From Candidatus Kryptoniota bacterium (lineage in GTDB: Bacteria; Bacteroidota; Ignavibacteria; Kryptoniales; JAKASW01): a DNA stretch of 64,000 nt. The position numbers were made by a program, and so were the translations under genes. The DNA is taken from the NCBI GenBank assembly GCA_036567965.1, contig DATCTN010000021.1, positions 8,906 through 72,905 on the forward strand, read 5' to 3'. The notes beneath the pieces were generated by a model. That model was not told the DNA's origin. It saw only the letters and a list, made by a program, of their open reading frames with translations, and searched no databases. This document shows positions 26,908 to 52,612 of this stretch, one piece after another (positions within the stretch are counted from its first letter, which is position 1; every line of letters begins with the position of its first letter).

Positions 26908-27136
26908 TCGCCGGGAAATCCTGCGCTTCGCGGATTCGCTCATTGCCTTCACTCTAACGCCCGGACTGTCCTTTCGATTCGCATGAGCATCGGGAGGTTC
27001 GCAGACATGGAGATTCATGTCGTCGCAATAACTCCTTAGTTTGACTCGCTACCCGGTCGTTCGCAATTTCCAATTCTTGTCCATAACTTTCACAGTCGGT
27101 TTAACTCATATCACGAAACTAACTGCGAATTCTGCC

Positions 27137-35043: not shown

Positions 35044-35547
35044 CAGAGGATTGAACGGCCTCCAGATGGACCATTGCTTGAAAGATCCTCAACTCTCCTC
35101 CCCGAAAGTGGATATCACTTTTTATTTTGAGGAGAGATTGAATATTTCAGAATCAATCTCTAAGATGTGTTGTTGTGTGCTTCGGTGCGGCAGGTGGGCG
35201 TTTGATTTGGAAGAAGTCTAAGTAAATGGACGCGAGTCTTGGACTACCGGACGGCCACGAAATCGGCCTCTGCCCATGTTATTCCGGTGTAGTCGTGAAC
35301 ACTATTGCAGGCTTCTGACATAGCTGTGATGAATCGAGACGTGACATTCACCGAATCATTAATCATGTGTTAAAGTTTGAGAAGGGAATGCCGATGATGC
35401 TAGTAAACGATGCGGGCAACCTTTTTAGAAGACAACAAGGCTTTTTTTGTGCATATATTTTTGGAACCGCTTCCAGAACAAAGTTCGTCGTGGGTGAAGT
35501 CTCAATCCGAACGACAGCAATTTCTGAAAGGTCACACTCAATTGAGA

Positions 35548-38148
35548 ATGTCTGACTTGATCAGGCGCCTTATCCTGACCGTCCTCTTGATTGCATCGAT
35601 GCTTTCGATGATGACGGACGCAGTTTATGCCTTAGATCCCCAAAAGACAATTTCGCAGTATGGTCACAATGTCTGGCTGCGACAGAACGGTCTTCCGGCA
35701 AATCTGGTGAACGTTGCATTCCACACTAGCGACGGATATTTATGGCTAGGCACTTCGGCCGGGTTGTTTAGATTTGACGGAGTGAATTTCACAAATGTCC
35801 CGACCAATCCACTAAATCCGCGTGACAGGGAAACAGTGACAGCGCTGTGCCAGACGAGCGACGGAAGTCTCTGGATCGGAACCATATTCAGCGGACTCCG
35901 CAGACTGAGTGGTGACAGCATGTCTGTCTACGGATTGAAACAGGGATTCTACGACACTCAAGTATGGTCGTTAATGGAAGATAAGTCGGGACATCTCCTC
36001 ATTGGCACTTCAATCGGGCTATTTACATTTACGGCAGGAGGTTTCAAACCGATCCTTGAAAGCCCGAACTACGTTGCAGCTGTTTGTGAAGACTCTCTCG
36101 AAAGGATTTGGGTTGGAACGCATGATGGCGTATTTGTTTTCCCGGAATCTTTGCTGACGGATAAGTCCGGATCTATCAGGATGCAAAATATTTCGTCTAA
36201 AGACGGCCTGCCCAACGACGTAACAACATGCCTTCTTGCCGATGAGCGGGGAGGTGTCTGGATCGGGTCTTACAGCGGGCTCGCTTATTGGATAAATGGA
36301 AAGATCTCTACTTTCGGTATGAACAACGGGCTACCAGACTACCATGTCAATTCCATATTTGAGGACCGGGATGGAAATATCTGGGTCGGCACAAGAAACG
36401 GCCTCAGCAGGTTTAATGGCGGAAAGTGGACGACTTATAATCAGAACGACGGGTTGACCGACAACAATGTAACTTCATTCGAAGAAGACAATGAAGGAAG
36501 TCTGTGGGTGGGTACGTCGAACGGATTGAATCAGTTCGAAGACGTAAACATGACCACCTACACGACGAGCGAAGGACTCGCCAGCAATTACCTATCCAGT
36601 GTTCTGGAGACGCAAGATGGTACGCTCTATTTCCTGAGCGATCAGGGGGCGAGTGTCACAGCCATGAAGAATGGTGAGACGAGGGTTTACAACATTTCGG
36701 TTGGTCCCGCATACGTATCGCGTGACGGCAGTCTTTGGATCGGCCAGACCGGCGTGCTCAACCGCATCAAAGACGGCATCCTGACCTCCTATAAATCGGA
36801 AGCTGGAATCCCGGTCAAGTGGATCTCCGCCATAACTGAAGATAGTAGAAGCCTCATTATATATGTCGACCACACAGGCCTTTTCAGGTTTAAGAACGGG
36901 ATGATCTCACCGTATAAGATTTCAAGCGGTGCGGAGTATCCCGCTGCAGAGGCTGTCATGTGTTTCTACTGGCAAAGGAGCGGCGACATATTGTGGGTGG
37001 GAGCGGCAGACTCGCTCGTAAAAATTGAAGGAGGGAAGATCACCGGTTACACGACCGCCGACGGACTCGCGGGAAACTGGAACAGTTCTTTTTATGACGA
37101 TCACCAGGGGAATTTGTGGATCAGCTCTCCCCAGGGAGGTTTAACGCGTTATCATGACGGCAAATTCACAGCGTACAACACAAGCGTCGGACTATTCACT
37201 AACTCTATATTCTGTGTTGTCGGCGACAATGACGGCGGCCTCTGGCTCAGCAGCCCGAGGGGGGTAGGACTGGTCTCGCTAACGGAGTTGAATGATTTCG
37301 CCGCACGCCGCGTCGATAGTATCCAGACGAAGGTGTTTGGCGTCGAAGACGGAATGAAGCGGGAAGAGTGCTTCGGGTTCTGGCAGCCTGCCGGCTGGAA
37401 AGACTTGCACGGAAATATCTGGTTCGCGACTCGCGAGGGCGCGGTGACTTTTAATCCGCGAAAGTTCAAATTAAATCAAATTGCACCTTCGGTTCTTGTT
37501 GAGCAGGTCGTTGCCGACAATATGGCCGTACCTCACCACGGATCTGTTGTGTTACCGCCCGGGACAGACAAGCTTGAGTTTCACTACACGGCGTTAAGTC
37601 TTGCCGCTCCAGATCGGGTGATGTTCAAATATGAACTGGTGGGATATGACAACACCTGGGTTGATCCGGGAACGCGACGCGTGGCCTACTATACTAACCT
37701 TCCTCCCGGAGAATACAAGTTCCGTGTGATCGCGTGCAACAACGACGGAATTTGGAATTACTCGGGAGCTGAATTCAGTTTTAACCTGAAGCCGCATTTT
37801 TACGAAACCTACTGGTTCTACATCCTGATGATATTATTGTTTTGCGGAGTGGCGTTCGGAATCTATCGATTGCGTGTTTGGCAGCTCCTCGCAAAGGAGA
37901 AGGAACTGAACGTTCGTATCCAGGAAGCACTGGCAAACATCAAGACGCTCGGCGGCCTGATTCCAATTTGTTCTAACTGCAAGAAAATCCGCGACGATAA
38001 AGGCTATTGGGAACAGCTCGAAGGATATATACAGAGTCACTCAGAAGCGCAGTTCTCACATGGCATTTGCCCCGATTGTGCCGCGAAACTCTATCCGGAT
38101 TACTACAAGTCGAAAGGCAATGAACCGGACAGTTCCTCCGGCCGATAA
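35548..38148 (+). CDS. Transmembrane sensor: two-component-regulator propellers plus Y_Y_Y domain plus TM helix plus short 4-Cys cytoplasmic tail (no kinase)
   Basis: Signal/TM segment LILTVLLIASMLSMM. Many GL..n.V..i.eD..G.lWiGT propeller repeats. Y_Y_Y motif PGEYKFRVIACNNDGIWN. TM helix YWFYILMILLFCGVAFGIY. Tail IPICSNCKKIRDDKGYWEQLEGYIQSHSEAQFSHGICPDC. Confidence 0.85.
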   Translation: MSDLIRRLILTVLLIASMLSMMTDAVYALDPQKTISQYGHNVWLRQNGLPANLVNVAFHTSDGYLWLGTSAGLFRFDGVNFTNVPTNPLNPRDRETVTALCQTSDGSLWIGTIFSGLRRLSGDSMSVYGLKQGFYDTQVWSLMEDKSGHLLIGTSIGLFTFTAGGFKPILESPNYVAAVCEDSLERIWVGTHDGVFVFPESLLTDKSGSIRMQNISSKDGLPNDVTTCLLADERGGVWIGSYSGLAYWINGKISTFGMNNGLPDYHVNSIFEDRDGNIWVGTRNGLSRFNGGKWTTYNQNDGLTDNNVTSFEEDNEGSLWVGTSNGLNQFEDVNMTTYTTSEGLASNYLSSVLETQDGTLYFLSDQGASVTAMKNGETRVYNISVGPAYVSRDGSLWIGQTGVLNRIKDGILTSYKSEAGIPVKWISAITEDSRSLIIYVDHTGLFRFKNGMISPYKISSGAEYPAAEAVMCFYWQRSGDILWVGAADSLVKIEGGKITGYTTADGLAGNWNSSFYDDHQGNLWISSPQGGLTRYHDGKFTAYNTSVGLFTNSIFCVVGDNDGGLWLSSPRGVGLVSLTELNDFAARRVDSIQTKVFGVEDGMKREECFGFWQPAGWKDLHGNIWFATREGAVTFNPRKFKLNQIAPSVLVEQVVADNMAVPHHGSVVLPPGTDKLEFHYTALSLAAPDRVMFKYELVGYDNTWVDPGTRRVAYYTNLPPGEYKFRVIACNNDGIWNYSGAEFSFNLKPHFYETYWFYILMILLFCGVAFGIYRLRVWQLLAKEKELNVRIQEALANIKTLGGLIPICSNCKKIRDDKGYWEQLEGYIQSHSEAQFSHGICPDCAAKLYPDYYKSKGNEPDSSSGR

Positions 38149-38190: not shown

Positions 38191-39633
38191 TCAGTTCGTT
38201 CCGCTTTTTTTCCAGAGGGCGTTCATTTGTTCGAGGGATACGCCCTTCGTCTCCGGAACCATTCTCCACATGAACAGTCCGGCGAGAATCGCCATCAGAC
38301 CATATACCCAGTACGCAAACCCGTGGTGGAACATCTGTGTCAATAATGTGCTCTTGTCGAGCATGGGGAATGTCCACGACACGAGATAGTTTGAAATCCA
38401 CATCACCGCCACTGAAATTGACATCGCTTTTCCCCTGATCTCATTCGGGAAAATCTCGGACAGCAATACCCATACGATCGGTCCCCACGAAAAAGAAAAG
38501 CCGGCCATGAAAATGAGCATGCACACGAGCGCGCCGATGCCGAGGCTGGAAGTTTGAAATACAAAACCGAGGCCGATCATTGATATCGCCATTACTCCCG
38601 CCCCGGCCAACTGAAGAGGCTTGCGTCCGAACCGGTCGACTGTGGTAATGGCGACGATAGTGAAAAGAAAATTCACGGATCCCACGATTAGTGTTTGCAG
38701 GAGCGCGGCGCTCGTCCCGCTGCCAAGGTTCTTGAAAATCTCCGGGCCGTAGTAGAGCACGACATTGATTCCCACAAATTGTTGGAAGAAAGCCAGAAGA
38801 ATTCCGATCATCACCAACTTCAGCCCGAATGACAAGAGTCTTCCTTGCTTGAACGCGAAGGAGTTCTTGATCTCATCTATAATGCGACGCGCGTCCTCCT
38901 CTCCGTTAACCCTGATGAGTATCCGCAGAGCTTTCTCGTTTTGATCGTTCATGATAAGCCATCTCGGCGATTCAGGGATGAAGAACAGAAGAATGAAGAA
39001 AAGACAGGCCGGGATTATTTCCGAACCGAACATCCATCTCCAGCCTGATTCGTTCAACCACACCTCGTTTCCCTGGAATGAGACAAAATAATTCACGAAG
39101 TACACAAGGATCATCCCGATAATTATTGCGAGCTGGTTATATGAGACAAGCTTGCCCCTTTTCCGCGCCGGCGCGATTTCTGCGATGTACATTGGGGAGA
39201 GAAGCGATGCCATCCCCACTCCTATCCCGCCGATGATCCTGTAAATGGTGAATTGCGTCAGAAATGAATAACCGCCGGTTCCGATTGCCTTGTAACCCAA
39301 TTCCGGAAGTGCGGAACCTACCGATGTTATCATGAAAAGTATCGCGGAGATAAGGAGCGATGTTCTCCGTCCGAATTTGTTGCTCATGAATCCCGCTATC
39401 GCGCCGCCGATAATGCATCCTATCAGCGCACTTGAGACCGCGAATCCGAGGAGAGAATTTGCCGACGTTTCCGCCAGCCCTCTCGGGAGTACGAAATAAT
39501 AGTTGAGTGCGCTCACCGTTCCCGATATGACCGCCGTGTCATATCCGAACAACAATCCTCCGAGTGTCGCGACCAACGTAATTAGTAGGGAGTAAGAGTC
39601 TTTCTGATTTTCCTGAGAGTCATTCATCGTCAT
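38191..39633 (-). CDS. MFS sugar porter (sugar:H+ symporter family)
   Basis: Sugar-porter signatures are present: GGLLFGYDTAVISG, FGRR, PESPRWL, PETKG. It has 12 TM segments. Confidence 0.9.
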   Translation of the reverse strand: MTMNDSQENQKDSYSLLITLVATLGGLLFGYDTAVISGTVSALNYYFVLPRGLAETSANSLLGFAVSSALIGCIIGGAIAGFMSNKFGRRTSLLISAILFMITSVGSALPELGYKAIGTGGYSFLTQFTIYRIIGGIGVGMASLLSPMYIAEIAPARKRGKLVSYNQLAIIIGMILVYFVNYFVSFQGNEVWLNESGWRWMFGSEIIPACLFFILLFFIPESPRWLIMNDQNEKALRILIRVNGEEDARRIIDEIKNSFAFKQGRLLSFGLKLVMIGILLAFFQQFVGINVVLYYGPEIFKNLGSGTSAALLQTLIVGSVNFLFTIVAITTVDRFGRKPLQLAGAGVMAISMIGLGFVFQTSSLGIGALVCMLIFMAGFSFSWGPIVWVLLSEIFPNEIRGKAMSISVAVMWISNYLVSWTFPMLDKSTLLTQMFHHGFAYWVYGLMAILAGLFMWRMVPETKGVSLEQMNALWKKSGTN

Positions 39634-39719
39634 GCCCGGTTCTTTCTTTTCCCGACTGGGATATCAATATCATCAATCGGCAGATTCGATTTCCCCCTCG
39701 ATTCGACGTGGAACGATCT

Positions 39720-40649
39720 TCACTTTCTCGATCGGACGACTTCCGCGATCTTCCTGATATGCTCAGGCGTTGTACCGCAGCATCCGCCGATTATGTTTGC
39801 GCCTGCTTCAATGAGCGGATTTATCCACAACACAATGTCCTCCGGTGATTGAGGATAGACCGTCTTCCCGTTCATCGTTAGTGGCAAACCGGCGTTCGCC
39901 TGGATGAGTACCGGTATGGTGCCGTCGACGCGCCGCAGTTCCTTCGTTATGTCGACCATTGCCTCGATTCCGTTTCCGCAATTAGCTCCGATGATGTCTG
40001 CACCTGAGGCGATGAGCGCATCTGCTGCAGCTTCCGGTGTTGTGCCCATCATCGTGTGGAATCCTGCTTCTTTATTCCCGTCAAACGTCATTGTACAGAT
40101 CACTTCGCATGTAGTACTGTCACGCGCTGCTTGTATCGCGCAGCGCGCCTCTTCGATATCAAACATGGTCTCCACCACGATAGCGTCGGCGCCTCCGGAT
40201 GCAAGCGCCTCTGCCTGCTCAGCAAAACATTTGTACAATTCTTCGGTTGTTATGTCTTCCATCATTAGAATTTTTCCTGTGGGTCCGACTGAACCGAGGA
40301 CATACACATGGTCGCCGGCCGCTTCGCGCGAAATTTCTGCCGCGGTCTTGTTTATCAAGACAGTCTTGTCTGCCAGCCCGTAAGAGTGGAGCTTTACTCG
40401 GCTTCCGCCGAAGCTGTTGGTCTCGATCATGTCGGCACCGGCACTCACATAGCTTCGCGCTATGTCCAGGACTTCAGATCTGTGTTCAAGGTTCCACAGT
40501 TCGGGGCACTCGTTCAACTTGAGACCCTTCTTGTGGAGCTCGGTACCCCATGCGCCGTCCGAAATGAGGATTTCTCCGGCCAGGATTCTTGCCTTTATTT
40601 TATTCTTAGGGTTCAACGAGTTGTCTCCATGTAATCTAAAGGTTCGCAA
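39720..40649 (-). CDS. Homocysteine S-methyltransferase-domain protein (MetH Hcy-binding-module-like)
   Basis: LISDGAWGTEL, GADMIETNSFG, and Zn-ligand cysteines in GANCGNG and GGCCGTTPEHI. There is no pterin-binding or B12 domain in this ORF. Confidence 0.85.
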   Translation of the reverse strand: MRTFRLHGDNSLNPKNKIKARILAGEILISDGAWGTELHKKGLKLNECPELWNLEHRSEVLDIARSYVSAGADMIETNSFGGSRVKLHSYGLADKTVLINKTAAEISREAAGDHVYVLGSVGPTGKILMMEDITTEELYKCFAEQAEALASGGADAIVVETMFDIEEARCAIQAARDSTTCEVICTMTFDGNKEAGFHTMMGTTPEAAADALIASGADIIGANCGNGIEAMVDITKELRRVDGTIPVLIQANAGLPLTMNGKTVYPQSPEDIVLWINPLIEAGANIIGGCCGTTPEHIRKIAEVVRSRK

Positions 40650-41632
40650 AGCGCAAGAAGGTTCTTACTCGGCGTGCCCGCGGGAATCTCGCATCCGGCA
40701 TTGACCATGAACGGGTTCCCCACGATCCTGTACGAGTTCACGACGTGTGACCGGATCGATGCCGGTGTCCCTCTCAAGACACCTGAGACGGGGTCGATGT
40801 TCCCGCTGATCGCAACTCGCGGGCCCACGGCCTCACGAACCGCCGCGAGATCCACCATATGGTCCACATCAAGAATGTCGACGTCGAGTCCGGCGATGCC
40901 CGGTAGAAGGTGGGTGATATTCCCGCAGATGTGAAGTCTGACTAATGCTCCGGACGAGTGTATCGCATCGACAAGCAACTTCTCTCTCTGTTGTATCAGA
41001 GTTTCGTAAGTCTCGGGCGGAAGCTGGCTCGCTACGGCGTCTCCGATCCCTATTGTGTCGGCGCCTGCAGCTACCTGTGCTTTCGCAAAACTTATTCCGG
41101 CTTGCGTGCAAATGTCCATCAGGTCTGCGACGAAGCCGCTGTCTTCTATCGTGTCCATCATGAAATTCGCCACGTCGCGCAGGTCGGCTGCTTCGGCTGC
41201 AGGTCCCTCGACCCAGCCCATAATCGAGAAATCTTTGGAATCCAGTCGTCTGTAATCCTCAATGGCCCGAATCCGGTCCGCCATCCTCGTCGATGTTTTG
41301 CTGTCGGGCTTTAAAAGGAATGACAGGTCTTTGGAATTTTCAAGTGGGTGAGTGCAGCGCGGTACACCATCGCGAACATAAGTTATCTTCCCGCCAAATC
41401 CCTCCGTCTCCCGGTATGGATCCGATATCGCGCTGAGCTGGTCGAAACCGAATTCACGCGCACACCTGCGGTTCGCCTCAACAAGTACTTGGAAATCAGA
41501 GGCGAACTCTCCGTAATTGGATCCGATACGCTCGGCGGCATACTGCATCACTATCGGGATGCGTGGTACATGGTCGACTCGTTCGCCCTTTAACATCCCG
41601 AGGTATCGTTCAAGGCTGTTCACCTGGAGCAC
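40613..41632 (-). CDS. UROD/MtaA-family methyltransferase, paralogue C
   Basis: N-terminal GERVDHVPRIP. Zn motif H-x-C in VRLHICGN and a distal Cys in NAGCEIPAGTP, as in methylcobamide methyltransferases (MtaA/MtbA). Confidence 0.75.
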   Translation of the reverse strand: MLQVNSLERYLGMLKGERVDHVPRIPIVMQYAAERIGSNYGEFASDFQVLVEANRRCAREFGFDQLSAISDPYRETEGFGGKITYVRDGVPRCTHPLENSKDLSFLLKPDSKTSTRMADRIRAIEDYRRLDSKDFSIMGWVEGPAAEAADLRDVANFMMDTIEDSGFVADLMDICTQAGISFAKAQVAAGADTIGIGDAVASQLPPETYETLIQQREKLLVDAIHSSGALVRLHICGNITHLLPGIAGLDVDILDVDHMVDLAAVREAVGPRVAISGNIDPVSGVLRGTPASIRSHVVNSYRIVGNPFMVNAGCEIPAGTPSKNLLALCEPLDYMETTR

Positions 41633-41641
41633 CTTTCACAA

Positions 41642-42361
41642 TTACTCAACAGAGTCATCCCGTCGTCTCAGATTCCTGTAGAGACAATCTGAATCCTCGC
41701 AGAGGCTGCAAGTATAAGGGTTGAATTTAACCGATGTTCCGATCCCGATTATACCGCTCACTGATTTTACGGGGCGCATAAGACAAGAATCTGTCAACTC
41801 AATTCCACAGAACCTGTCGGGAAGGAGACTGAATAGTTTCTTTTGCTCCGATACGTCCCATCCGCAATAGCCGGGGCTATAGCGGTTCGTGATTTTCAAG
41901 CCAAGCTTCCCAACATACTGCTTCAGTGATTCCTGGACATAATCCATCCCGCTTTCGACCGCCAGGGAACCGTAAACATCGTAGATATATCCTTTGAGAA
42001 AATCTCCTTCCTTCATGAGCGCTCTGGATTTTTCGATGATTTCGTTTCCCGCAGTGCAGACAAAAATGGCGATTTGCTCCGATCTTCTGAGTTGTTGAAA
42101 GACGACTTTTCTGGTCTCGAAATGTTTTTTTTCGGCAATAAGCATGCCTTGCTCGTCGTCGAATTCTAGACCACCGACTAACCTGTAGCCGCCGACCACT
42201 TTGCATAACATCCCGGCGTCCTCGAGGACTTCTTCGATTGTCTCGTTCACCTGAGGAGGAGCGGCTGCAGGCCCGTATCCGATTACAATAGCGATCTCTG
42301 ATTTTGAAACGATAATGTCTTTCGATTCGATTGAATATGTCTCAATATCTGAAGGCGTCAA
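41642..42361 (-). CDS. Methionine-synthase activation-domain-like protein (Met_synt_B12)
   Basis: NRYSPGYCGWDVSEQKKLFSLLP...GIELTDSCLMRPVKSVSGIIGIG matches the RxSPGYgdW...P.KS.sg core of the MetH reactivation (SAM-binding) domain. Confidence 0.75.
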   Translation of the reverse strand: MTPSDIETYSIESKDIIVSKSEIAIVIGYGPAAAPPQVNETIEEVLEDAGMLCKVVGGYRLVGGLEFDDEQGMLIAEKKHFETRKVVFQQLRRSEQIAIFVCTAGNEIIEKSRALMKEGDFLKGYIYDVYGSLAVESGMDYVQESLKQYVGKLGLKITNRYSPGYCGWDVSEQKKLFSLLPDRFCGIELTDSCLMRPVKSVSGIIGIGTSVKFNPYTCSLCEDSDCLYRNLRRRDDSVE

Positions 42362-43385
42362 TTACTCTCCTCTCATGTTTGGCGTTGAATTCCCTGACTG
42401 CCTTGAAGAAGGCCGCTACATTTTCTGCCGGCGTGCCTGGCGGGAGATCGCATCCGGAAGATATTATGAAATTCCCCTTCGAAATGGTTGCCGACAAGAG
42501 CTGGGCGGTTGACTCGTGAACTCTGTCGGGGGTGGAGGATTTGAAGACTCCGACGGGATCCAAGTTTCCCATCACGAGAACATTGGAAGGGACAATCGAG
42601 AGCACGTCGAGCAAGTCGACCTTATTCCCAAAGTGAAGTCCTCCCGCTCCGGTTGAGATCATCGATCGGGTTACGTGCCCGGTATTTCCACAATTATGGA
42701 GAATGAATAGAAAGCTGCCGTCTTGTACTTGAGATACAATTTCTCTGATATAATGAGAAGAGAAATCGTCGCATAAATCGGCAGACAACAATCCTGCAGC
42801 TGGTTCAGCCATGATTATTCCGTCGGCCCCAACCTTTTTTGTTTCCAGGATATATTGGGCGAGAAACAGTGAGCATTTTCTAACAAGAACTGATATCGCC
42901 TCCGGTTCGATAAGGATGGAGGTCATGATTTCGGATAGCCCGAAAAGTCTCCCAGCGAGTGAGAAGGGGCCGATGCAGACTGCAAACACAGGCTTGTCAG
43001 TTATTGTCTTTGTCACATTCTGTAGGGAACTCAGTTGCTGCCGGATGCGCGCCATATTGAGAGAAGGGACGACAAGTTTTTCAATGGCTGCCGAATCCTC
43101 GAGAAGCTTACCTGACAAGGAAGGTATTTCGTTTTCATGAAAATCCACGTCGGATCCGAATGCTTCTGCTTCGAGCGTCAAATCCATCATCATTGTTGCA
43201 GCATCGGGGGCGAATCGCTTTTGAATCGCGATAATCGCCGAGTATTGTACTTCATGAGATTTGACTGCATCGATTGTTCGCTTCCGAATAATCTCGATTC
43301 CGGGATGCGTCATTATCGGTATAGCAAGCCTCTTCGGGGAATTGCGAATGGACTTAACCCATTCTTCCATGTTGCGGTTCAACAT
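42342..43385 (-). CDS. UROD/MtaA-family methyltransferase, paralogue B
   Basis: H-x-C in FILHNCGN and a distal Cys in SSGCDLPPGTP. AEAFG and MAEP motifs are typical of MtaA/CmuA-like proteins. Confidence 0.8.
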   Translation of the reverse strand: MLNRNMEEWVKSIRNSPKRLAIPIMTHPGIEIIRKRTIDAVKSHEVQYSAIIAIQKRFAPDAATMMMDLTLEAEAFGSDVDFHENEIPSLSGKLLEDSAAIEKLVVPSLNMARIRQQLSSLQNVTKTITDKPVFAVCIGPFSLAGRLFGLSEIMTSILIEPEAISVLVRKCSLFLAQYILETKKVGADGIIMAEPAAGLLSADLCDDFSSHYIREIVSQVQDGSFLFILHNCGNTGHVTRSMISTGAGGLHFGNKVDLLDVLSIVPSNVLVMGNLDPVGVFKSSTPDRVHESTAQLLSATISKGNFIISSGCDLPPGTPAENVAAFFKAVREFNAKHERRVIDAFRY

Positions 43386-43399
43386 CTCGGCATCTTCTT

Positions 43400-44068
43400 T
43401 CAGGTTGAGAGCTGGTTCAAATACTTGACTGCTCCCTGAGGATCCGGAGAGTAAAAGTTCGCGCCGATGCTCGCGCAGAAATCAGCGGACAGGGGAGCAC
43501 CACCGACAAGTATTACCTTCTCAGGATATTTGTCGCGTATTCCTCTAACGATCGATCCCATGTTTGCCATCGTGGTTGTCAGAAGGGCGGACATCCCGAC
43601 GACACAGTCCGGATATTTCCCGATCGCGTCGAGAAATTTCTCGCTCCTGACGTCGACTCCGAGATCGATTACCTCCCAACCTGCACCTTCAACAGTCATT
43701 GCGACAATATTCTTGCCGATGTCGTGAAGGTCGCCCATCACAGTTCCGACTACAAACACGCCCTTCCGTTTTATTTCGCCCGACGCGAAATAGGGTTTCA
43801 GGTGCTTCATCGCTGCCGTCATCGCTTTGGCCGCGATCAACATTTCGGGCACGAATGCTTTTCCTTGAGAAAATTTGTCGCCGATCCTCGACATCCCGGG
43901 AATCAGTGCGTCGTTAAGGATTTCCTCCGGATTGATCCCGATGTCCAGGGCAGCTTTACAAAGTTCATCCGCTCCATCCTGACCTTTCATCGCCGGCGGA
44001 AACGGCGACGCTTTATTGATTTTCCCGAACTCGATGCAGGTGGTCAGTTGTTCAAGAATCTGGTTCAT
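43400..44068 (-). CDS. Corrinoid (cobalamin-binding) methyl-carrier protein
   Basis: B12-binding_2 cap helix bundle plus Rossmann domain. It has the base-off/His-on motif GDLHDIGKN (DxHxxG), SALLTTTM and VGGAP. Length is 222 aa, typical of MtaC/MtbC-type proteins. Confidence 0.9.
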   Translation of the reverse strand: MNQILEQLTTCIEFGKINKASPFPPAMKGQDGADELCKAALDIGINPEEILNDALIPGMSRIGDKFSQGKAFVPEMLIAAKAMTAAMKHLKPYFASGEIKRKGVFVVGTVMGDLHDIGKNIVAMTVEGAGWEVIDLGVDVRSEKFLDAIGKYPDCVVGMSALLTTTMANMGSIVRGIRDKYPEKVILVGGAPLSADFCASIGANFYSPDPQGAVKYLNQLST

Positions 44069-44104
44069 CTAGTAGTCCTTTGAGAAAGAAGTCGATTTGT
44101 AAAT

Positions 44105-45370
44105 TCAGTATTTCCTGTACTTATTAAAAGTGTCGATCACGGCCATGAGATTCTCTATCGGAACTCTGGCCTGAATATTATGGACTGTGTTGAATACAAA
44201 GCCTCCACCCTGCGCGAACGTCTCTATCCTTGAACGTACTTCGGATGCCACCTCTGCCGGCTTACCGAAGGGGAGTGTCTTCTGTGTGTCAACTGCGCCT
44301 CCCCAGAATGTGAACTTATCTCCGAACTCGGACTTCAGTCGGGCGGGTTCCATCTCGGCTGCAGAACACTGAACGGGATTCAATATGTCAAAACCAGAAT
44401 TCGCAAACTCGGGCAGGAGACGGTATACCGACCCGCAAGAATGAATGAAGGATTTCCAGCCTGTATTCTTGTGGATCCAGTTGTTCACTTCTCTATGGAA
44501 GGGTTGATACAGATCGCGGTATGCTTCCACGGAAATGAATGGTCCCCTCTGCGTTCCGAAGTCTGTGCCGCTTATGAAAACGGCAGTTACCTTGTTTCCG
44601 ACCTGTGTAAATAGTTTCTCGAGGTTTTGTATTCCTATCTCACATTGTCTCTCGAATATTTTGTACACGAAATCCCTGCGGGAGATTGTGCTGATGTACC
44701 AGTCTTCTATACCGCGGATGCCTTTGGGATTCTTAAGCCAGGGTGCGGGGACCATCGCGATGTCACCGAAAGCGGTACCGCCGAATGTTGCGAAGATCGC
44801 TTTATCTGTTTCCGCATAAAGGCGATCCGCTCCCATTTTGAAATGATTCAGGTCCTCGTCCGATATAGGAACGAACTCCTCGAGATTGTCGCGGACATCC
44901 AGGCGACTTTCGTCAATCTCTTCCTGTCTAACAATAGCGTCGAAGTAGAATCCTCCATTCGGCATCCTCCCGCTCGGAGACACGCTCTTGTCACCTTCGG
45001 GGTAGAGGAGAATGTCGCCATTGGGCTCGGGCGCCGTATTGAATCCTTCAGGGACGAGTACCGGGGTGCCGTCGAAGAGGCACCACTCCTTCCAGCCTTT
45101 GTTGGGGAATCCGAACATAGTCTTGCGTGAGATTAATCCAACAACGTCGATCCCGATCGAGTCCATGAGATCGCTTCCGACTTCTCCGAGCATTTGGTAC
45201 GGTTCTGTCACTTTCACCGGAGTGCCGGGTGAATCGAGTGCAAGAGCCTGTCGGAGTTTATATAGTGTGCTCGCGTGAATCCCCGTAACCGCAGACCCGC
45301 CCATGTCGAATGGAACCATGTCAGGTTCCTTGTGGTCCAACGAGGTGAGGACTCTTTCTCTGGAGATCAT
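44105..45370 (-). CDS. UROD/MtaA-family protein, paralogue A (longest, about 420 aa)
   Basis: An internal ATG gives MISRERVLTSLDHKEPDMVPFD. H-x-C in FIHSCGS. The distal Cys position is replaced (FNTVHNIQ). Extra insertions relative to paralogues B and C. Confidence 0.7.
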   Translation of the reverse strand: MISRERVLTSLDHKEPDMVPFDMGGSAVTGIHASTLYKLRQALALDSPGTPVKVTEPYQMLGEVGSDLMDSIGIDVVGLISRKTMFGFPNKGWKEWCLFDGTPVLVPEGFNTAPEPNGDILLYPEGDKSVSPSGRMPNGGFYFDAIVRQEEIDESRLDVRDNLEEFVPISDEDLNHFKMGADRLYAETDKAIFATFGGTAFGDIAMVPAPWLKNPKGIRGIEDWYISTISRRDFVYKIFERQCEIGIQNLEKLFTQVGNKVTAVFISGTDFGTQRGPFISVEAYRDLYQPFHREVNNWIHKNTGWKSFIHSCGSVYRLLPEFANSGFDILNPVQCSAAEMEPARLKSEFGDKFTFWGGAVDTQKTLPFGKPAEVASEVRSRIETFAQGGGFVFNTVHNIQARVPIENLMAVIDTFNKYRKY

Positions 45371-45536
45371 GTTCCTGACCGCTTGCCCAAGTTGACCTTC
45401 AAAATTAATTGCAATAGATAAAATCAGAACAAATTTCGTCCGTTTCAAGGAAAGATTTGTTCATTTGACCGGGAAGAACGATGGATGTGGACTAAATCAA
45501 TGTAAAAAATCCCGGGGAGGCACGGAGGAGAGACTT

Positions 45537-46634
45537 CTATTTCGGAGGGTAAGCAAAGATCATCTTCATGCCTTCGTCTGTTTTATACTCGACTTCTTTT
45601 GTTGAAAAGGGAATGAGAAATCTGTCGCCCAACTTGAGACCTTCACGATGGCCTCCTGCTGCCATCGAACCGATCCCTGACTTCACGATTCCCACATGAA
45701 ACGAGTCGGATCTCCTCCGGAATTTGTTTGTGACATCAAGCTGTAACACTTCAAAACACCGGGTCTGCTTTTCATCAATGAGTATGTACTCGATTCCGCC
45801 TTTGCCGCTTCTCGTTATCCTTGGAGGACAAAAATGTTTTCGCCGCACATCCTCTCCGGAAGTTTGGGTGAAGTCGATCATTTCGATCGCGAAATTCACG
45901 TCCCGACCCATGAACCGTGATGGCTCCGGCAGGATGTAACCTCCTCGCTCAAACTCGAGTCTTACTACGAAGTCCGTTGGCTCCATGATCTCTATCATGA
46001 AGATGCCTTCGCCGATTGCGTGAGGCATTCCGCCTGGAATTAGAAATACGTCCCCGGCATGAACTGGAACTTTTTCAAAGCACGACAGCAATTCGCTTGT
46101 CTCCTGCTTCAGTACGATTTCCCGGAATCTTCCTTTTGATGGTGCATGTTGAAATCCGAGATAGATGTAAGGTTCGCTGATCTCCTTTCGGACTCCGAGA
46201 ATGACGTACGCTTCTGTTTTCCCTGAATTGCTATTCAGATGCTTCTTCGCGAACTGGAGCGTAGGATGTGCCTGGATGTGAAGCCTGATATTCGAGTCCA
46301 GGAGCTTAACGAGAAATTGAGCTTCCGATCCGTACTTTGCGAAATGAGTCGGCCCGAGAATTTCTGCGGGGAATTTCTGAAGGAGATTCTTCAGTGAGAT
46401 CTCTTTTTCACCGAGTGCCACCCTTGAGATTCCCTCATTAACGGATTCATTGCGCCCCGGATTTATCGCCGCAGTTGTTGAGCAAACCCAGTCTTCTGGA
46501 AAATGAGAATCATCCGCGTCAACTTTGCCCTCGAGCTGGTCGAGAAGCTTGCCGCCCAGATAGCTTCTCCAAACTCGATTAGGAAGAAGTCTGATCAGTG
46601 GAGGTATTGCGGCGGATGATTCTTTACTCGACAA
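45537..46634 (-). CDS. Class I phosphomannose-isomerase-like cupin sugar isomerase
   Basis: VWRSYLGG, LHIQAHP, GKTEAYVILG, GDVFLIPGGMPHAIG and IEIMEPTDF parallel the ManA/Pmi motifs (vWGG, SvQvHP, GKtE.W, GD...ipaGt.HA, E.q..SD). Confidence 0.7.
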   Translation of the reverse strand: MSSKESSAAIPPLIRLLPNRVWRSYLGGKLLDQLEGKVDADDSHFPEDWVCSTTAAINPGRNESVNEGISRVALGEKEISLKNLLQKFPAEILGPTHFAKYGSEAQFLVKLLDSNIRLHIQAHPTLQFAKKHLNSNSGKTEAYVILGVRKEISEPYIYLGFQHAPSKGRFREIVLKQETSELLSCFEKVPVHAGDVFLIPGGMPHAIGEGIFMIEIMEPTDFVVRLEFERGGYILPEPSRFMGRDVNFAIEMIDFTQTSGEDVRRKHFCPPRITRSGKGGIEYILIDEKQTRCFEVLQLDVTNKFRRRSDSFHVGIVKSGIGSMAAGGHREGLKLGDRFLIPFSTKEVEYKTDEGMKMIFAYPPK

Positions 46635-48780
46635 GGAGGACGACCACCTGATACTGACGGATTTTGAGCGGGACCGAGATTGTCGACGTTTGTCGCGCGA
46701 ACTGGAGTTCAGTGTCGGAGATGATATCCTTCACCGAGCGCACTTCAAGACCGTCGCAGTCCAGCTCAAGCGAACCGGATTTCGGAGTGTCTTGCGAATT
46801 GATGACATATACGATTCGCGCGGTTTCGGTCTCGTGAACTTTTATATCTAGGTATGAGTGATCGTTGGAATTGAACTTAGTTCCGAGAGTAACGCCCGCA
46901 ACCGATGCAAAGCTCAGGACTAGCCTGTTCACTGGATTGTCCGTTCTCTTGAAGTAACTCGCGCCAAGCGGCACCGCGCAAAGGATCGCCCTCCCTTTGC
47001 CGTAACGGTTCTGAGTCACGGCGACCTCTCCGTTGTCTACAAAGGAGCCAAGAATATTCACGCTGCTTCTCGGGTGGAGATGCTCTCTGAAATATCTTCC
47101 CTCGAATTGAAAAGCCTCTTTCTTCACGGCAGCATTTATGCGAATTCTGGAGTTCTTATCAGATGCGATCCAGTCGGTCCGTGTCGCTCCAAACACATCA
47201 TCGAGCCCCGCGCCTGGACTCGTAGTGTAGGCAAAATCTAGCTCGTCAATCGTCGCAGTCCGTGCATCAGCCACGATCCAACCGCCAAGCTTCACATACT
47301 CCTTGAGAATCTCAGCGCACTCGCGCCGCATGACGATCTGGAACGGAAGAAAAATAATTTTGTATTGTCCAAGAGATTTCAGGTCGATACCACGGTCCAT
47401 CCTGACAATGTCCGTCACGATATTCGCTTCATGGAATGCTTTGAAGATGCCCGCATAACTTTCATACATAAATTTGTTGGTAGCCATTTCAGTGGTTTGC
47501 TCGAGTGTCTTGATCAAACCTACGACATCCACAAGGACGGCGACCTCAGCCTTTCGAAGGTGGGCGCGACTGAGCACTTCACCATACCTTTGGACCACAG
47601 CTCCGAGATCGCGGACCGCTTCACCTCGGGGTGCCAGCTCTCCATCGACGCGACATAGTCCCCTTCCGAGCGACTGGCGGCCCCGCGTAAATGGCCGCCA
47701 TTTCCAGTAGACTAACCCTTTGCAATCATTGGATAGAGCTGTCCACGCTAAAAGTGTTACCGCGTCCTTCGTCAGGTAACCGTTGAGCGCGAGACCATTC
47801 TGGGCGTTCGTGAAGAGCTCCGTTAGGATGTAGTCCTTGTTACCCGCCGAACACCTGACTGCGTTGAATGCAAGGTTGTGCAGCCAAAATGGGACCTCCT
47901 CATTTCCATGCTCGCGTTCCCAAATGTCGGGGTAGTAAGAAATTCCATGTATATCATTCTTGTCGGCAAGTGGTAAGTCGTCGACATCGTAAGACCCGAA
48001 ATCCTTGAAGCTCATCCAGGTCGTCCCGACGGAGTTTGCATTGACCGCGTGAGTTTTGTCGTATCTTCTCAATGTCTGAATCAATTCACCGAGAAGAATT
48101 CCATTCAGTTCGTTCCTGAATATTTTCCAATCTATCTGCGGCATTGAGGAGTCCCAGTTGTCATTCAGGAAAGGTGATACTTGAAGCCAGTTGTTGTATT
48201 CTTTCCCCCACGAACGCCGGAGCGCCGGCAAGGTTCCATACCTCTTCTTCAGCCAGTTCCGGTACCGCTCCATGACATGTTCGGCGTTGGAGCTGTAATG
48301 AGGTTCGTTCCATATGTTGTAGAACGCGAGTGCGGGGCTGCTGCCGTATCTCCCAATCACAGCTTTGAAGTATTCTTCGACGAGCGGGTACACCCTCGGG
48401 TCCGCGAAGTCCACGTTTTCTCTATTGTTCTTATTTCCATTCTTCAGATTGTACTGCTGCCACAGACCTTCGATCTCACTGAATTTCCAGATGGGGAAAT
48501 AGTGACTGCACTGTTCCTCCTTGAGAAGCAACGGAACAAATTTCATTCCGCATGATTCGATCCTCCGTACGATGTAATCGGTGCGCGTCCACACAAGCTC
48601 TTTGGTATCGGGATCCCATTGGCTCATCGGGAAAATCATGACATGACTTATCCCCGCTGCCGTCATAAGCTCGATGTCCCTGTCGGCCCGCTTGAAGAAT
48701 TGTTCGTCGGTTACGAACTCTTCATGGAAGATGTGGTACACCGTTCCGACGATGATCGAGCTCCCTGCGGAGAATGTCAT
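46624..48780 (-). CDS. GH42-family glycoside hydrolase (beta-galactosidase / alpha-L-arabinopyranosidase family)
   Basis: AFYNIWNEPHY (acid/base NEP), RYRNWLKKRYGTLPALRRSWG, GISYYP. The C-terminal KIIFLPFQIVM...YVKLGGWIVADA resembles the GH42 trimerisation domain. No signal peptide, so it is probably cytoplasmic. Confidence 0.8.
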   Translation of the reverse strand: MTFSAGSSIIVGTVYHIFHEEFVTDEQFFKRADRDIELMTAAGISHVMIFPMSQWDPDTKELVWTRTDYIVRRIESCGMKFVPLLLKEEQCSHYFPIWKFSEIEGLWQQYNLKNGNKNNRENVDFADPRVYPLVEEYFKAVIGRYGSSPALAFYNIWNEPHYSSNAEHVMERYRNWLKKRYGTLPALRRSWGKEYNNWLQVSPFLNDNWDSSMPQIDWKIFRNELNGILLGELIQTLRRYDKTHAVNANSVGTTWMSFKDFGSYDVDDLPLADKNDIHGISYYPDIWEREHGNEEVPFWLHNLAFNAVRCSAGNKDYILTELFTNAQNGLALNGYLTKDAVTLLAWTALSNDCKGLVYWKWRPFTRGRQSLGRGLCRVDGELAPRGEAVRDLGAVVQRYGEVLSRAHLRKAEVAVLVDVVGLIKTLEQTTEMATNKFMYESYAGIFKAFHEANIVTDIVRMDRGIDLKSLGQYKIIFLPFQIVMRRECAEILKEYVKLGGWIVADARTATIDELDFAYTTSPGAGLDDVFGATRTDWIASDKNSRIRINAAVKKEAFQFEGRYFREHLHPRSSVNILGSFVDNGEVAVTQNRYGKGRAILCAVPLGASYFKRTDNPVNRLVLSFASVAGVTLGTKFNSNDHSYLDIKVHETETARIVYVINSQDTPKSGSLELDCDGLEVRSVKDIISDTELQFARQTSTISVPLKIRQYQVVVLLVE

Positions 48781-48784
48781 GGGA

Positions 48785-49744
48785 TTATTCGCGGGGAGTT
48801 TCTCTCAGACTTGACAAACAGCTGATGAGGTAATCAAGATGCTGTCCAATTTTTGGCCATGCTTGGAATTCAAGACCGAAATCGTATTTCATATCGGAGA
48901 CATCGAAGAGGGTAACGTTGTCGCTCCATCCCTTGTCTCTGACGATGATCTTACTCTTTGAGCGGCACTTTCGCACCGCCTCCGCTGCGATATTCTCCCA
49001 TGAAACAAATGTCCTCGATAATCCGAAATAAGTCCTTCTGTTCAGGTTACTCTCGAGAACACTGACATAGAGTTTTGCAAGATCCCCTGCCCAAATAAAC
49101 TGAGTCCCGTCGTTCTTCACTACTTCTATTTGTTCGTTTCGCAGCGCATTCTTCACGATTGTCTCAAATCTTCTATCGCGCTGTGTGCTTGCGCCCGTGA
49201 CAACGGGATTTCCGAATGTATATCCGGGTCTGATGATGTTCACCCGCATATGAGTATTGTATGACACGGCGAGCAGGTAGTTCTCACTCGCAGCCTTGGT
49301 CGCCCCATAAAGAGTGGTCGGGTGATGTTTTGTAGTGGTCTCGACTTTCGATATCAGCCCGTCTATTTTGTTCTGTTCAACCATATATACATAATCGTTG
49401 ACTGCAGTCGAAGAAGTGTACAAGAATTGCTTCACCCCGGCTGCTGCGGCGAGATCGGCCATAAGAACGGTGGGGAGTGTGTCTTCTACGAGGACTTCCG
49501 CGGCAGACTCCTTTGTATACTTCAACGCCACGTGCACGCACGCATCCTTGCCTTCTACGAGCATTGCAAGGAGAGCTCCGTCCCCCAGGTCGCCTTCCAC
49601 GACTTCAAGGCCATACTGGTCCAATAATGCCGGGACCTTATTCCTGTCCCTTGCGAGGATAGTGACGTTATTCCCCCGTGAGAGGAGTTCCATGGCGACG
49701 TATGATCCGATGAAGCCAGTACCGCCGGTTAGAAACACGTTCAT
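48785..49744 (-). CDS. NAD(P)-dependent epimerase/dehydratase (extended SDR)
   Basis: MNVFLTGGTGFIGSYV (Rossmann) and YGATKAASE (YxxxK). Confidence 0.9.
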   Translation of the reverse strand: MNVFLTGGTGFIGSYVAMELLSRGNNVTILARDRNKVPALLDQYGLEVVEGDLGDGALLAMLVEGKDACVHVALKYTKESAAEVLVEDTLPTVLMADLAAAAGVKQFLYTSSTAVNDYVYMVEQNKIDGLISKVETTTKHHPTTLYGATKAASENYLLAVSYNTHMRVNIIRPGYTFGNPVVTGASTQRDRRFETIVKNALRNEQIEVVKNDGTQFIWAGDLAKLYVSVLESNLNRRTYFGLSRTFVSWENIAAEAVRKCRSKSKIIVRDKGWSDNVTLFDVSDMKYDFGLEFQAWPKIGQHLDYLISCLSSLRETPRE

Positions 49745-50025
49745 TCCAATTTTCCCATTGTCCTACGGCAGAAGGAAGTTAATAAGACGGAGTCACAATT
49801 GATAATGCGCAAACGAAGCTCGATGAACTTGAAACCTCAAACTGAAAAGTCCTGACGATGATGGGACGGAAACCTAAAAGTGTCGAAGAAATTTGATTCT
49901 TCTTTGGGGGCACAGTAAAATGATTGCAGGGTTCCTGAAGAAGCGTTGCTTTAATCGTCCGCTTCTCTTCGCAACTGTTGCATTTGCGCGGGGGACTCCA
50001 TAGCTGGAAAAATCTCGGAGAATCC

Positions 50026-51613: not shown

Positions 51614-52612
51614 ATGAGTCAAAAGAAGTATAAGTCTTCAGACAAGAGATACGACAGAATGAGCTACAGGCGCTGTGGAAGAAGCGGCGTTATGTTGCCG
51701 GCGGTGTCGCTTGGATTATGGCACAACTTCGGCGGGGTTGATTCGGATCGGACCTACAGAAAAATTCTTTGGAGTGCCTTTGATCTTGGTGTCACTCATT
51801 TTGATCTTGCGAACAATTATGGCCCGCCGCCCGGCTCGGCAGAATCAAACTTCGGCAGGATCGTGAAACAAGACTTCTCGTCCTACCGGGATGAGATGAT
51901 CATCTCCACAAAGGCCGGCTATCTCATGTGGCCTGGTCCTTACGGAGAGTGGGGCTCGCGCAAGTATCTCATAGCCAGCCTCGACCAGAGCTTACTCAGA
52001 ATGGGTCTTGAATATGTCGACATTTTCTATTCTCATCGACCGGATCCTGATACTCCACTGGAGGAAACCATGGGCGCACTTGCCGACATCGTGGAGCAGG
52101 GGAAAGCACTGTACGTGGGAATCTCAAATTATAGAAACGATGTCGCTGCCACGGCGATCCAGACGCTTGAGAGAATGGGGGTTCATTGCTTGATTCACCA
52201 GCCACGCTACTCGATGTTCGATCGCTGGGTAGAAGAGGGGCTACTAGACGTACTCGCCAAGTATGGAGTTGGTTGTATCCCGTTTTCACCTCTCGCCCAG
52301 GGCTTGCTTACGGATCGCTACCTCAATGGAATTCCGCGCGGCTCGCGTGCTTCCAAGCCTCATGGTTTCCTCAGACCTGAGCAAATTACAGAGGAGAAGA
52401 TTTCGAAAGCTAAAAAGCTCAACGAGATAGCTAAGTCGAGAGGTCAGAGTCTGGCGCAGATGTCGCTTTCCTGGCTCCTCAAGGATACAAGAATAACATC
52501 AGTACTCATAGGGGCGAGCAGCGTGGACCAGTTGCGAAACAATTTGAAGTCGGTCGATAATCTGAGTTTCACAGACGCTGAACTGAACGCAATAGAGATG
52601 GTCCTGCAATGA
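51614..52612 (+). CDS. Aldo/keto reductase (YghZ / Kv-beta-like subfamily)
   Basis: YRRCGRSGVMLPAVSLGLWHNFGG...FDLGVTHFDLANNYGPPPGSAESNFG closely parallels the E. coli YghZ-type AKR N-terminus. The rest of the AKR fold follows (332 aa). Confidence 0.9.
   Translation: MSQKKYKSSDKRYDRMSYRRCGRSGVMLPAVSLGLWHNFGGVDSDRTYRKILWSAFDLGVTHFDLANNYGPPPGSAESNFGRIVKQDFSSYRDEMIISTKAGYLMWPGPYGEWGSRKYLIASLDQSLLRMGLEYVDIFYSHRPDPDTPLEETMGALADIVEQGKALYVGISNYRNDVAATAIQTLERMGVHCLIHQPRYSMFDRWVEEGLLDVLAKYGVGCIPFSPLAQGLLTDRYLNGIPRGSRASKPHGFLRPEQITEEKISKAKKLNEIAKSRGQSLAQMSLSWLLKDTRITSVLIGASSVDQLRNNLKSVDNLSFTDAELNAIEMVLQ

Follow-up and report, generated by a model that had tools for sequence, protein, structure and literature searches.

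A stretch of 64,000 nucleotides (nt) from the genome of a Candidatus Kryptoniota bacterium (assembly GCA_036567965.1, contig DATCTN010000021.1, positions 8,906 to 72,905; hereafter the window) was found to carry, among ten genes on its minus strand (38191-49744), the parts of a putative corrinoid-dependent methyl transfer system. These very probably form a corrinoid relay in which a stand-alone homocysteine (Hcy)-binding barrel of the MetH type acts as the second methyltransferase (MT2) and a stand-alone PF02965 protein, termed Act here, as the activator. The run as a whole is given somewhat better than an even chance of being a carbohydrate-utilisation operon containing this relay, and the chance of an O-methylated sugar or sugar-like polyol being the methyl donor is considered to be even. 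Homology and synteny suggest in which direction the methyl group moves, that homocysteine accepts it and that S-adenosylmethionine (SAM) is used, while the identity of the methyl donor is suggested by genomic context only.

Modules of the putative methyl relay

Proteins of the window were mapped using tblastn onto 85 loci that contain relatives of Act (numbered with the prefix L below). A preliminary description of the window had proposed that MetH is present there as separate modules, and the motifs on which this was based (GANCGNG, GGCCGT, GDLHDIGKN and RYSPGYCGW...PVKSVSG) were all recovered in place on the minus strand.

The Hcy barrel (39720-40649, 309 aa) matched S-methyl_trans (PF02574) with 247 bits over residues 28-305 and possesses the motifs DGAWGT, ETNSF, GANCGNG and GGCCGT. 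Its closest relative of solved structure was the Hcy domain of Thermotoga maritima MetH (1Q7M, 195 bits), with the cysteines of GANC and GGCC aligning with the corresponding cysteines of that structure, so that the zinc site is represented by all three of its cysteines, with DGAxGT and ETNxF also being kept. Scores against other MetH enzymes ranged from 160 to 176 bits, with 76 bits obtained for BHMT and 49 bits for HMT (5DML). The protein also scored 216 bits against PRK07534, a model which presumably covers the bacterial 'BHMT' called an MtgE homologue in PMC12478193. Orthologues of the barrel adjoin a corrinoid protein and an activator in L005, L007, L010-L014, L051, L073 and L083. By these likenesses, the barrel is proposed to be a methyl-corrinoid:homocysteine methyltransferase (MT2). 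Its identification as an enzyme of the MmuM/YagD type, using SAM or S-methylmethionine, was considered and found to be unlikely, because the scores for such enzymes were low (5DML 49 bits and PRK09485 99 bits, versus 195 bits for MetH) and because the protein is always found beside a corrinoid protein.

The corrinoid (B12) carrier protein (43400-44068, 222 aa) consists of a B12-binding_2 domain (PF02607) and a B12-binding domain (PF02310), and carries GDLHDIGKN, containing the DxHxxG motif, followed by SALL and VGGAP. It scored 171 bits against MtgC_2 and 157 bits against pyl_corrinoid, with the range for the MtgC, MtbC and pyl_corrinoid models being 143-171 bits versus 120 bits for MetH. As the methylotroph models score above that of MetH, the protein is regarded as a carrier of the MtaC/MtgC type and not as a detached MetH domain. 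The assignment of the modules to MetH in the preliminary description thus stood for the Hcy and activation modules, while that of the B12 module was not upheld. A search of the genome with the carrier using tblastn identified MetH as the sole other B12-binding match, making it the only stand-alone corrinoid protein detected there in this way.

Act (41642-42361, 239 aa) is a stand-alone activation protein of the MetH type. PF02965 covers only residues 158-209 of the protein (38 bits); alignment to T. maritima TM0269 (1J6R) extends over residues 18-206 (E 5e-7). An AlphaFold model of Act had a pLDDT of 86.8, and a Foldseek search with this model returned 1J6R first (TM 0.83 by target), followed by the MetH reactivation domains of Thermus, Escherichia coli and human, with the structures matched including 1MSK and 6BM5. 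The protein carries RYSPGYCGW...PVKSVSG, of which RYSPGY (RxxxGY) was found to be invariant among 22 homologues. Motif and fold together suggest that Act binds and uses SAM.

Residues invariant in the alignment of 22 Act sequences were R160, S162, P163, G164, Y165 and five cysteines, namely C102 (in a CTAG motif), C166 (directly after RxxxGY) and C218, C221 and C226, which make up a CxxCxxxxC at the C-terminus that 204 of 205 Act homologues possess. TM0269 has no counterparts of C102, C166, C185 and C193 of Act, and its chain of 214 residues ends too early to hold a cysteine tail like that of Act. The CxxCxxxxC tail was the sole part of the AlphaFold model with low confidence, as would be expected of a fold that depends on a metal. 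The conserved cysteines may form a metal site, possibly an Fe-S cluster, which could serve as the entry point for the electron required in repair.

A search for RACE/RamA activators (DUF4445, PF14574) gave no match in the genome, and the only copies of PF02965 there were found to be the C-terminus of MetH and Act. Should the corrinoid protein require repair, Act would be the only candidate in the genome for this task. It lies between two UroD genes and beside the MtaC-type corrinoid protein, and not next to a short MetH. The claim of the preliminary description that reactivation is of the MetH style and not of the RACE type agrees with the lack of PF14574 matches in the genome, the TM0269 fold and the invariant RYSPGY.

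The Act subfamily comprises 3058 database homologues, with relatives in at least 594 species-level genomes. These belong mostly to uncultured Bacteroidales/Bacteroidota, and also to Ignavibacteria, Spirochaetota, Syntrophaceae/Smithella and one metagenome-assembled genome (MAG) labelled Deltaproteobacteria, this taxonomy being that of submitter labels on the related MAGs (such as 'uncultured Bacteroidetes'). Within the genus of the window, a relative of Act was identified in 16 of 25 genomes (that of the window included) and in none of 16 genomes of sister lineages, a patchy occurrence that fits an accessory catabolic trait. The Act homologues within the genus fall into two identity classes, of approximately 58-60% and 38-42%, and the copies of the nearest congeners are just ~60% identical to that of the window. 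This suggests that the genus is broad or that the module has been exchanged laterally.

Interleaved with the MetH-like modules, by overlaps or gaps of 9-36 nt, are genes for UroD-fold proteins (PF01208). UroD-A and UroD-B are situated within the interval of the preliminary description (39720-44068), which had correctly noted such genes among the modules, and UroD-C sits just beyond it. UroD-A (40613-41632, 339 aa, 192 bits) is an MtaA-like zinc methyltransferase that matched MtaA (4AY7) with 91.7 bits. Its LHICGN and AGCE motifs, which are kept in orthologues, align with stretches of MtaA presumed to hold the zinc ligands (H-x-C...C). The block of UroD-A, Hcy barrel and XylE-like transporter of the major facilitator superfamily (MFS) is repeated in L010, L013 and L016. 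UroD-A is proposed, from its sequence, to be a substrate:corrinoid methyltransferase (MT1), and being MtaA-like it may have a thiol-methylating role.

UroD-B (42342-43385, 347 aa, 183 bits) is a zinc methyltransferase of the UroD family, whose LHNCGN and SSGCD motifs are kept in 10 orthologues. It is the sole UroD in the operons of L011, L038 and L005, the last of these also holding a second, distant UroD approximately 4 kb upstream of the operon. UroD-C (44105-45370, 48.5 bits) is a divergent UroD-fold protein without a close solved relative, in which PF01208 matched residues 245-444 only. From an ATG at 45370 it is 421 aa in length, and the longest open reading frame (ORF) from a TTG at 45448 gives 447 aa; the start at 45370 is probable because orthologues are also 421 aa. 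In those of L009, L010 and L018, its motifs IHSCGS and FNxxHNIQ are kept, and the protein lacks the distal cysteine (HSCG...HNIQ). UroD-B and UroD-C are proposed to be a second and a third MT1, respectively. Against the MtaA/CmuA model the UroD proteins scored 142.7, 123.3 and 37.7 bits, all under its cut-off of 235.4.

Methionine synthesis in the genome and absence of a pterin module from the window

The genome containing the window has a size of 4.15 Mb and is estimated to be 100% complete. A six-frame profile search of it for the pterin-binding domain PF00809 gave no match in the window and located only two sites elsewhere, on contigs C6 and C12. The site on C6 is an ORF of 296 aa, read as FolP-like, and that on C12 is the pterin domain of MetH (ORF1), with no stand-alone pterin methyltransferase found in the genome by this profile. 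The possibility of a hidden pterin module in the window is thus ruled out, since there is no room for such a barrel, each of the six ORFs being taken up by its own domains and the gaps being at most 88 nt. This confirmed the earlier observation that the interval is devoid of this module.

A canonical MetH with every module was identified at C12:70275-73891, together with a YitJ-like fusion of an Hcy methyltransferase and a methylenetetrahydrofolate reductase (MTHFR) of 615 aa at C8:134280-136124. MetE, SelA and MtaB were not found in the genome, and methanol was rejected as the donor in this organism given that MtaB is missing. The preliminary description had called for a survey of metH, metE and RACE elsewhere in the genome, and the survey showed a complete MetH, with neither MetE nor RACE. 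With MetH and the YitJ-like fusion located elsewhere, the ordinary route to methionine is complete without the operon, which is therefore viewed as an accessory system. It is more likely that methionine is the sink of a demethylation pathway rather than its purpose.

The MetH on C12 was observed to be encoded by two ORFs, split at the linker between the folate and cap domains into Hcy plus pterin (611 aa) and cap plus B12 plus activation (~592 aa) portions. ORF1 stops with a TAA, and an ATG preceded by GAGG follows 5 nt later. This represents either a genuine split or an assembly frameshift.

Two layouts among related loci

The loci related to that of the window were found to follow two layouts. 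Layout I (approximately 45 loci) consists of a corrinoid protein, a Pterin_bind methyltransferase, MTHFR (with DUF5981) and Act, with no UroD or Hcy gene nearby; nine of these loci were annotated, and for the others the evidence is from tblastn alone, which showed the pterin gene and an equally large gap. Layout II, to which the window belongs, consists of a corrinoid protein, none to three UroDs, Act, an Hcy barrel and often a Sugar_tr porter. A pterin module occurred together with a UroD-like match in only one of the 85 loci, L042, where the latter was weak (20% identical).

In a tree of Act, the clade of the window (20 rows, support 100/97) contained 11 Hcy-linked rows, or 13 with L005 and L006, where the Hcy gene was shown by tblastn, and no pterin-linked row. 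A clade of 53 rows (support 100/96) contained 44 that are pterin-linked and none with a UroD or Hcy gene. The tree of Act separates the layouts and thus the Hcy barrel occupies the slot of the folate methyltransferase in the sister systems.

L010 showed complete synteny with the window (UroD-C, corrinoid protein, UroD-B, Act, UroD-A, Hcy barrel, MFS transporter), and L013 holds a GH31 enzyme, corrinoid protein, Act, a small ORF, UroD-A, Hcy barrel and MFS transporter. The number of UroDs varies across Layout II, from none detected (L012, L051) to three, with a single corrinoid protein, a single Act and a single Hcy barrel remaining constant, as is usual where MT1 enzymes vary around a fixed core.

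On the complete chromosome of a Bacteroidales MAG (CP070654.1), L051:7005-10690 encodes MtaB (518 bits), a corrinoid protein, an Hcy barrel that is 62% identical to that of the window, and Act. By sequence this MtaB is assigned unambiguously as a methanol:corrinoid MT1, and the Hcy barrel of L051 must be the enzyme on the acceptor side because there is no other candidate in this four-gene operon. L051 can be viewed as a candidate methanol:homocysteine route, by which methionine would be made from methanol, in Bacteroidales. Taken with the division between the layouts and an operon devoid of a pterin module, this supports the earlier suggestion that the donor would be something other than methyltetrahydrofolate (methyl-THF).

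No recognisable MT1 was found in the nine annotated loci of Layout I. These may encode MetH and MetF in split form, or alternatively a demethylase linked to folate with an MT1 of an unrecognised kind. In L029:1141-15603, the one such locus annotated gene by gene, the Layout I set was observed directly after SusC/SusD, beside a GH115 enzyme and a GFO/IDH/MocA oxidoreductase.

Sugar context and proposed pathway

The ten minus-strand genes overlap or are separated by gaps of at most 88 nt. The first three in transcription order, identified by Pfam/NCBIfam matches, encode an NAD-dependent epimerase/dehydratase-family protein (48785-49744), a cytoplasmic GH42-like hydrolase (46624-48780) and a PMI-like cupin (45537-46634), and these are followed by the relay genes from UroD-C to the Hcy barrel. 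The last gene (38191-39633) encodes a sugar-porter-family MFS transporter of 480 aa and of the XylE type (PF00083, 431 bits), which scored 722.7 bits against the NCBIfam XylE equivalog model NF007484 (cut-off 608) and 55 bits against the model of the aromatic-acid transporter PcaK. Orthologues of the porter, 72-73% identical, are located at the same position in L010, L013 and L016, and it is proposed by homology to be the importer of the methylated substrate.

Glycoside hydrolases (GH) and other carbohydrate genes were also found around the related loci. In the 18 loci of Layout II that were tallied, eight Sugar_tr proteins were counted and the flanks include GH42, GH78, GH43, GH92, GH127, GH106, GH88, GH31 and GH2, along with PFK, UxuA, aldo-keto reductases and LacI/AraC regulators. 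Layout I is likewise situated among carbohydrate genes, with the tally of its nine loci adding GH116-like proteins, FGGY kinases and LacI regulators.

The glycans of plants, mosses, algae and microbes frequently contain methylated sugars, such as 4-O-methyl-glucuronate, 2-O-methyl-xylose and -fucose, 3-O-methyl-rhamnose and 6-O-methyl-galactose. To our knowledge, the sole sugar demethylase is an oxygen-dependent P450 from marine bacteria, and within an incomplete coverage of the literature no paper was found on the anaerobic removal of sugar methyl groups in peat, sediments or guts.

In the pathway proposed here, the XylE-type porter would import a methylated sugar or small glycoside, from which the GH42-like enzyme would free the monosaccharide. 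UroD-A, UroD-B or UroD-C, as variable and substrate-specific MT1 enzymes, would then use the methyl group of the substrate to methylate the corrinoid carrier (222 aa) at Co(I), and the Hcy barrel, as the constant MT2, would move this group from methyl-Co(III) to homocysteine, giving methionine and Co(I). The barrel would thereby stand where related systems have a pterin-binding methyltransferase and MTHFR. Upon a slip to Co(II), Act would restore the cofactor by reductive methylation with SAM, taking the place of an ATP-dependent RACE/RamA, with electrons possibly passing via a metal (Fe-S?) site of its conserved cysteines. The demethylated sugar would enter central metabolism by way of the isomerase and the epimerase.

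In its fullest form, the proposal is that the operon and its relatives in uncultured bacteria of the Bacteroidota/FCB group are the first oxygen-independent sugar O-demethylase, using zinc UroD-fold enzymes to split aliphatic methyl ethers of plant or microbial sugars with transfer onto a B12 protein, passing the methyl group to homocysteine in place of folate, and possessing a new SAM-type activator with its own Fe-S/metal site for electron entry that replaces both flavodoxin docking and RACE. This is put forward tentatively, with doubt exceeding confidence. The operon provides a concrete candidate, open to testing, for the anaerobic removal of sugar methyl groups. If homocysteine is the acceptor, it would be the third besides folate and coenzyme M for corrinoid methyl relays, and the breakdown of glycans would be tied to the supply of methionine and SAM. 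The Act subfamily may also be an ATP-independent way to repair corrinoid proteins, which could help biocatalysis with cobalamin methyltransferases, where reactivation is a practical bottleneck.

Weighing of the sugar demethylation proposal and its alternatives

A number of points weigh against the demethylation of sugars by this operon. We know of no biochemical precedent for the corrinoid-dependent cleavage of aliphatic (sugar) methyl ethers, and a search of the literature found none. As a methyl sink, homocysteine has little capacity if there is no turnover of methionine. The Hcy barrel is 37% identical to the YitJ-type domain of the genome and 35% to its MetH domain and, being about equally close to the two, leaves the methyl donor unfixed by homology alone. 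No Hcy gene was found within 10 kb in L009, L017, L018 and L071. The related loci are phylogenetically non-independent, and neighbouring glycoside hydrolases are common in these lineages. The evidence for expression of the operon is weak, consisting of three short metatranscriptome contigs only. Lastly, the zinc ligands of UroD-A and UroD-B are a His-Cys-Cys set, which has been tied to S- or Se-methyl substrates, with carboxylate ligands tied to aromatic O-demethylases (Kountz and Balskus, PMC10418091), and this favours a methyl-sulfur substrate.

Such a substrate is the basis of one alternative, in which the UroDs would demethylate methylthio compounds (methylthio-sugars derived from methylthioadenosine, or small methyl sulfides) with the methyl group being recycled to methionine via the corrinoid protein and the Hcy barrel. 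The presence of three MtaA-like proteins and a corrinoid protein without a tetrahydrofolate (H4folate) methylase is the layout of the mlp clusters, for which recycling of methyl groups into methionine was proposed by their authors, who also linked the zinc set of UroD-A and UroD-B to S/Se substrates (PMC10418091). However, Ram/RACE, a core mlp component, has no gene in the genome, and SelA is likewise missing, hence there is no selenocysteine trait; UroD-C is without the distal cysteine, and the genes form a sugar operon with a XylE-type porter, with relatives situated among glycoside hydrolases and not among genes of sulfur metabolism. Moreover, CmuA-type and MtaB enzymes also use cysteine-containing zinc sites for non-sulfur substrates. 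This alternative is considered to be unlikely. Another alternative is that the methyl group comes from an aryl methyl ether, with the operon acting on plant phenolic glycosides (methoxylated flavonoids or lignin-derived compounds), such that glycoside hydrolases would strip the sugar and the UroD MT1 enzymes would act on the aglycone as in acetogens, with homocysteine replacing tetrahydrofolate. The rhamnosidases and beta-galactosidase-like enzymes of related loci would also suit the deglycosylation of flavonoid glycosides, and the habitat, peat or soil, is rich in plant phenolics. Yet the transporter of the operon passes the XylE equivalog cut-off and reaches just 55 bits against PcaK, the zinc ligands are not of the carboxylate type reported for aromatic O-demethylases (PMC10418091), the PMI-like isomerase and the epimerase point to a product of demethylation that is a sugar in its own right and destined for metabolism, and a fermenter without the acetyl-CoA pathway would gain little from an aromatic methyl group, making this quite improbable and slightly more so than a methylthio substrate.

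The Hcy barrel, corrinoid protein and Act could alternatively make up a second methionine synthase, supplied with a pterin module in trans by the canonical MetH, with the UroD and sugar genes being bystanders. Split forms of MetH do exist in Phaeobacter and Ruegeria (PMC5764234, PMC12478193), the MetH of this genome is itself already two ORFs split at the folate/cap linker, and many Bacteroidales loci hold a corrinoid protein, a pterin methyltransferase, MTHFR and Act with no Hcy gene nearby. Nevertheless, the genome already holds every module of MetH, and the UroDs are interleaved with the relay genes, co-vary with the Hcy layout and are missing from the principal clade of pterin-linked loci; among the 85 loci, a pterin module and a UroD-like match, the latter weak, coincide in L042 alone. 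From the MtaB operon of L051 it is evident that the core accepts donors other than folate, the occurrence of the module in the genus is patchy, and the window has neither a SAM nor a B12 riboswitch. This alternative is regarded as very unlikely. A relay that demethylates a sugar or sugar-like polyol is thus retained as the preferred reading of the operon.

Expression and neighbouring genes

No Rfam match at the gathering score for a SAM or cobalamin riboswitch was obtained anywhere in the window, and a scan for promoters and terminators gave counts not above those in shuffled sequence. Sequence of the window was found in soil and peat metagenomes. The three metatranscriptome contigs, all from one study, were a contig of 161 nt identical to 43601-43761 (the gene of the corrinoid protein), a contig of 157 nt identical to 46808-46964 (the GH42-like gene) and a third short contig that matched at 100% across the junction of the genes for a sensor-like protein and the MFS transporter.

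This sensor-like protein (35410-38148, plus strand, 912 aa, Reg_prop/Y_Y_Y) converges on the 3' end of the operon. It has no kinase or regulator domain by Pfam, and could be the glycan sensor of the operon. Divergent from the operon is an ORF of 506 aa (49978-51498, plus strand) with no Pfam or NCBIfam match, after which lies an aldo-keto reductase (51614-52612) that passes the cut-off of the L-glyceraldehyde-3-phosphate reductase subfamily (463 vs 448 bits). Two aldo-keto reductases were present in the first eight related loci tallied, one of them in L005. Further away, a protein of 1056 aa (27041-30211, plus strand) gave weak matches to GH5 and GH42 of approximately 36 bits each. This protein is possibly secreted and paralogous to the cytoplasmic GH42-like enzyme of the operon, and might release substrate outside the cell.

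Comparison with known corrinoid systems

The preliminary description had judged the combination of parts to be unusual, and in an incomplete coverage of the literature no paper was found that describes it or that deals with corrinoid/cobalamin enzymes acting on methylated sugars; the combination is nonetheless common in uncultured bacteria. Likeness to MetH, and to T. maritima TM0268 with its stand-alone TM0269 (1J6R), lies in the Hcy barrel with a Cys3 zinc site and in the B12 cap with DxHxxG and its Rossmann fold, with the activation module (RxxxGY, TM0269 fold) being a separate protein in both T. maritima and the window. A title cited in PMC7857596 indicates that MetH of T. maritima needs a separate activation protein. 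Unlike MetH, the operon has no pterin (methyl-THF) module, with UroD-fold methyltransferases present instead, all of its parts are separate proteins, its corrinoid protein is of the MtaC/MtgC type and its genes are embedded among those for sugar utilisation. Against TIGR02082 (MetH), the Hcy, corrinoid and Act proteins scored 184.6, 119.8 and 20.8 bits, compared with a cut-off of 1010.85 bits. Act differs from TM0269 by its extra set of invariant cysteines, including the C-terminal CxxCxxxxC, and by serving no adjoining short MetH, the MetH of the genome having an activation domain of its own.

Separate Hcy and corrinoid subunits, as in the operon, are also known from the three-part MetH of Phaeobacter inhibens and from MtgBCDE of Ruegeria pomeroyi (PMC5764234, PMC12478193). 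The corrinoid protein of Ruegeria is also loaded from glycine betaine via MtgB, making the carrier common to demethylation and methionine synthesis (PMC12478193). These split enzymes of Rhodobacterales rely on an essential pterin subunit (MtgD) and an MT1 of the MttB family, and are reactivated by a RamA-like DUF4445 protein and DUF1638 with no PF02965, whereas the operon is without a pterin subunit, has MT1 candidates of the UroD family and a PF02965-type activator, and lies in a genome without RamA.

The systems of anaerobes that consist of MT1, corrinoid protein, MT2 and RACE (OdmABCD/Vdm, MtvABC, MtaABC, MtgABC) resemble the operon, as read here, in combining a substrate-specific MT1 with a small carrier of corrinoid, an MT2 and a repair enzyme, with the MT1 or MtaA enzymes of several of them also being zinc enzymes of the UroD superfamily. 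In contrast to these, the putative MT2 of the operon is a Hcy barrel of the MetH type and not a pterin-binding enzyme that forms methyl-THF or a coenzyme M methylase, the activator is predicted to be of the SAM type and not an ATP-dependent RACE, and the context is one of sugars and not of aromatics, methanol or amines.

Type 1 mlp clusters (PMC10418091) share with the operon several MtaA-like UroDs and a corrinoid protein without an H4folate methylase; most members possess the His-Cys-Cys zinc set, and their authors suggest that the methyl group ends in methionine. These clusters have Ram/RACE as a core gene, hold no Hcy barrel, occur mostly in Firmicutes and are linked to selenium and sulfur genes, unlike the operon, whose genome is without RACE and SelA and which has a Hcy barrel, a PF02965 activator and a sugar context in the FCB group. 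The operon therefore fails at least one defining feature of each of the closest described systems, and represents a new combination of known parts, namely UroD-family MT1 candidates, a carrier of the MtaC type, a putative Hcy MT2 of the MetH type and a cysteine-rich PF02965 activator.

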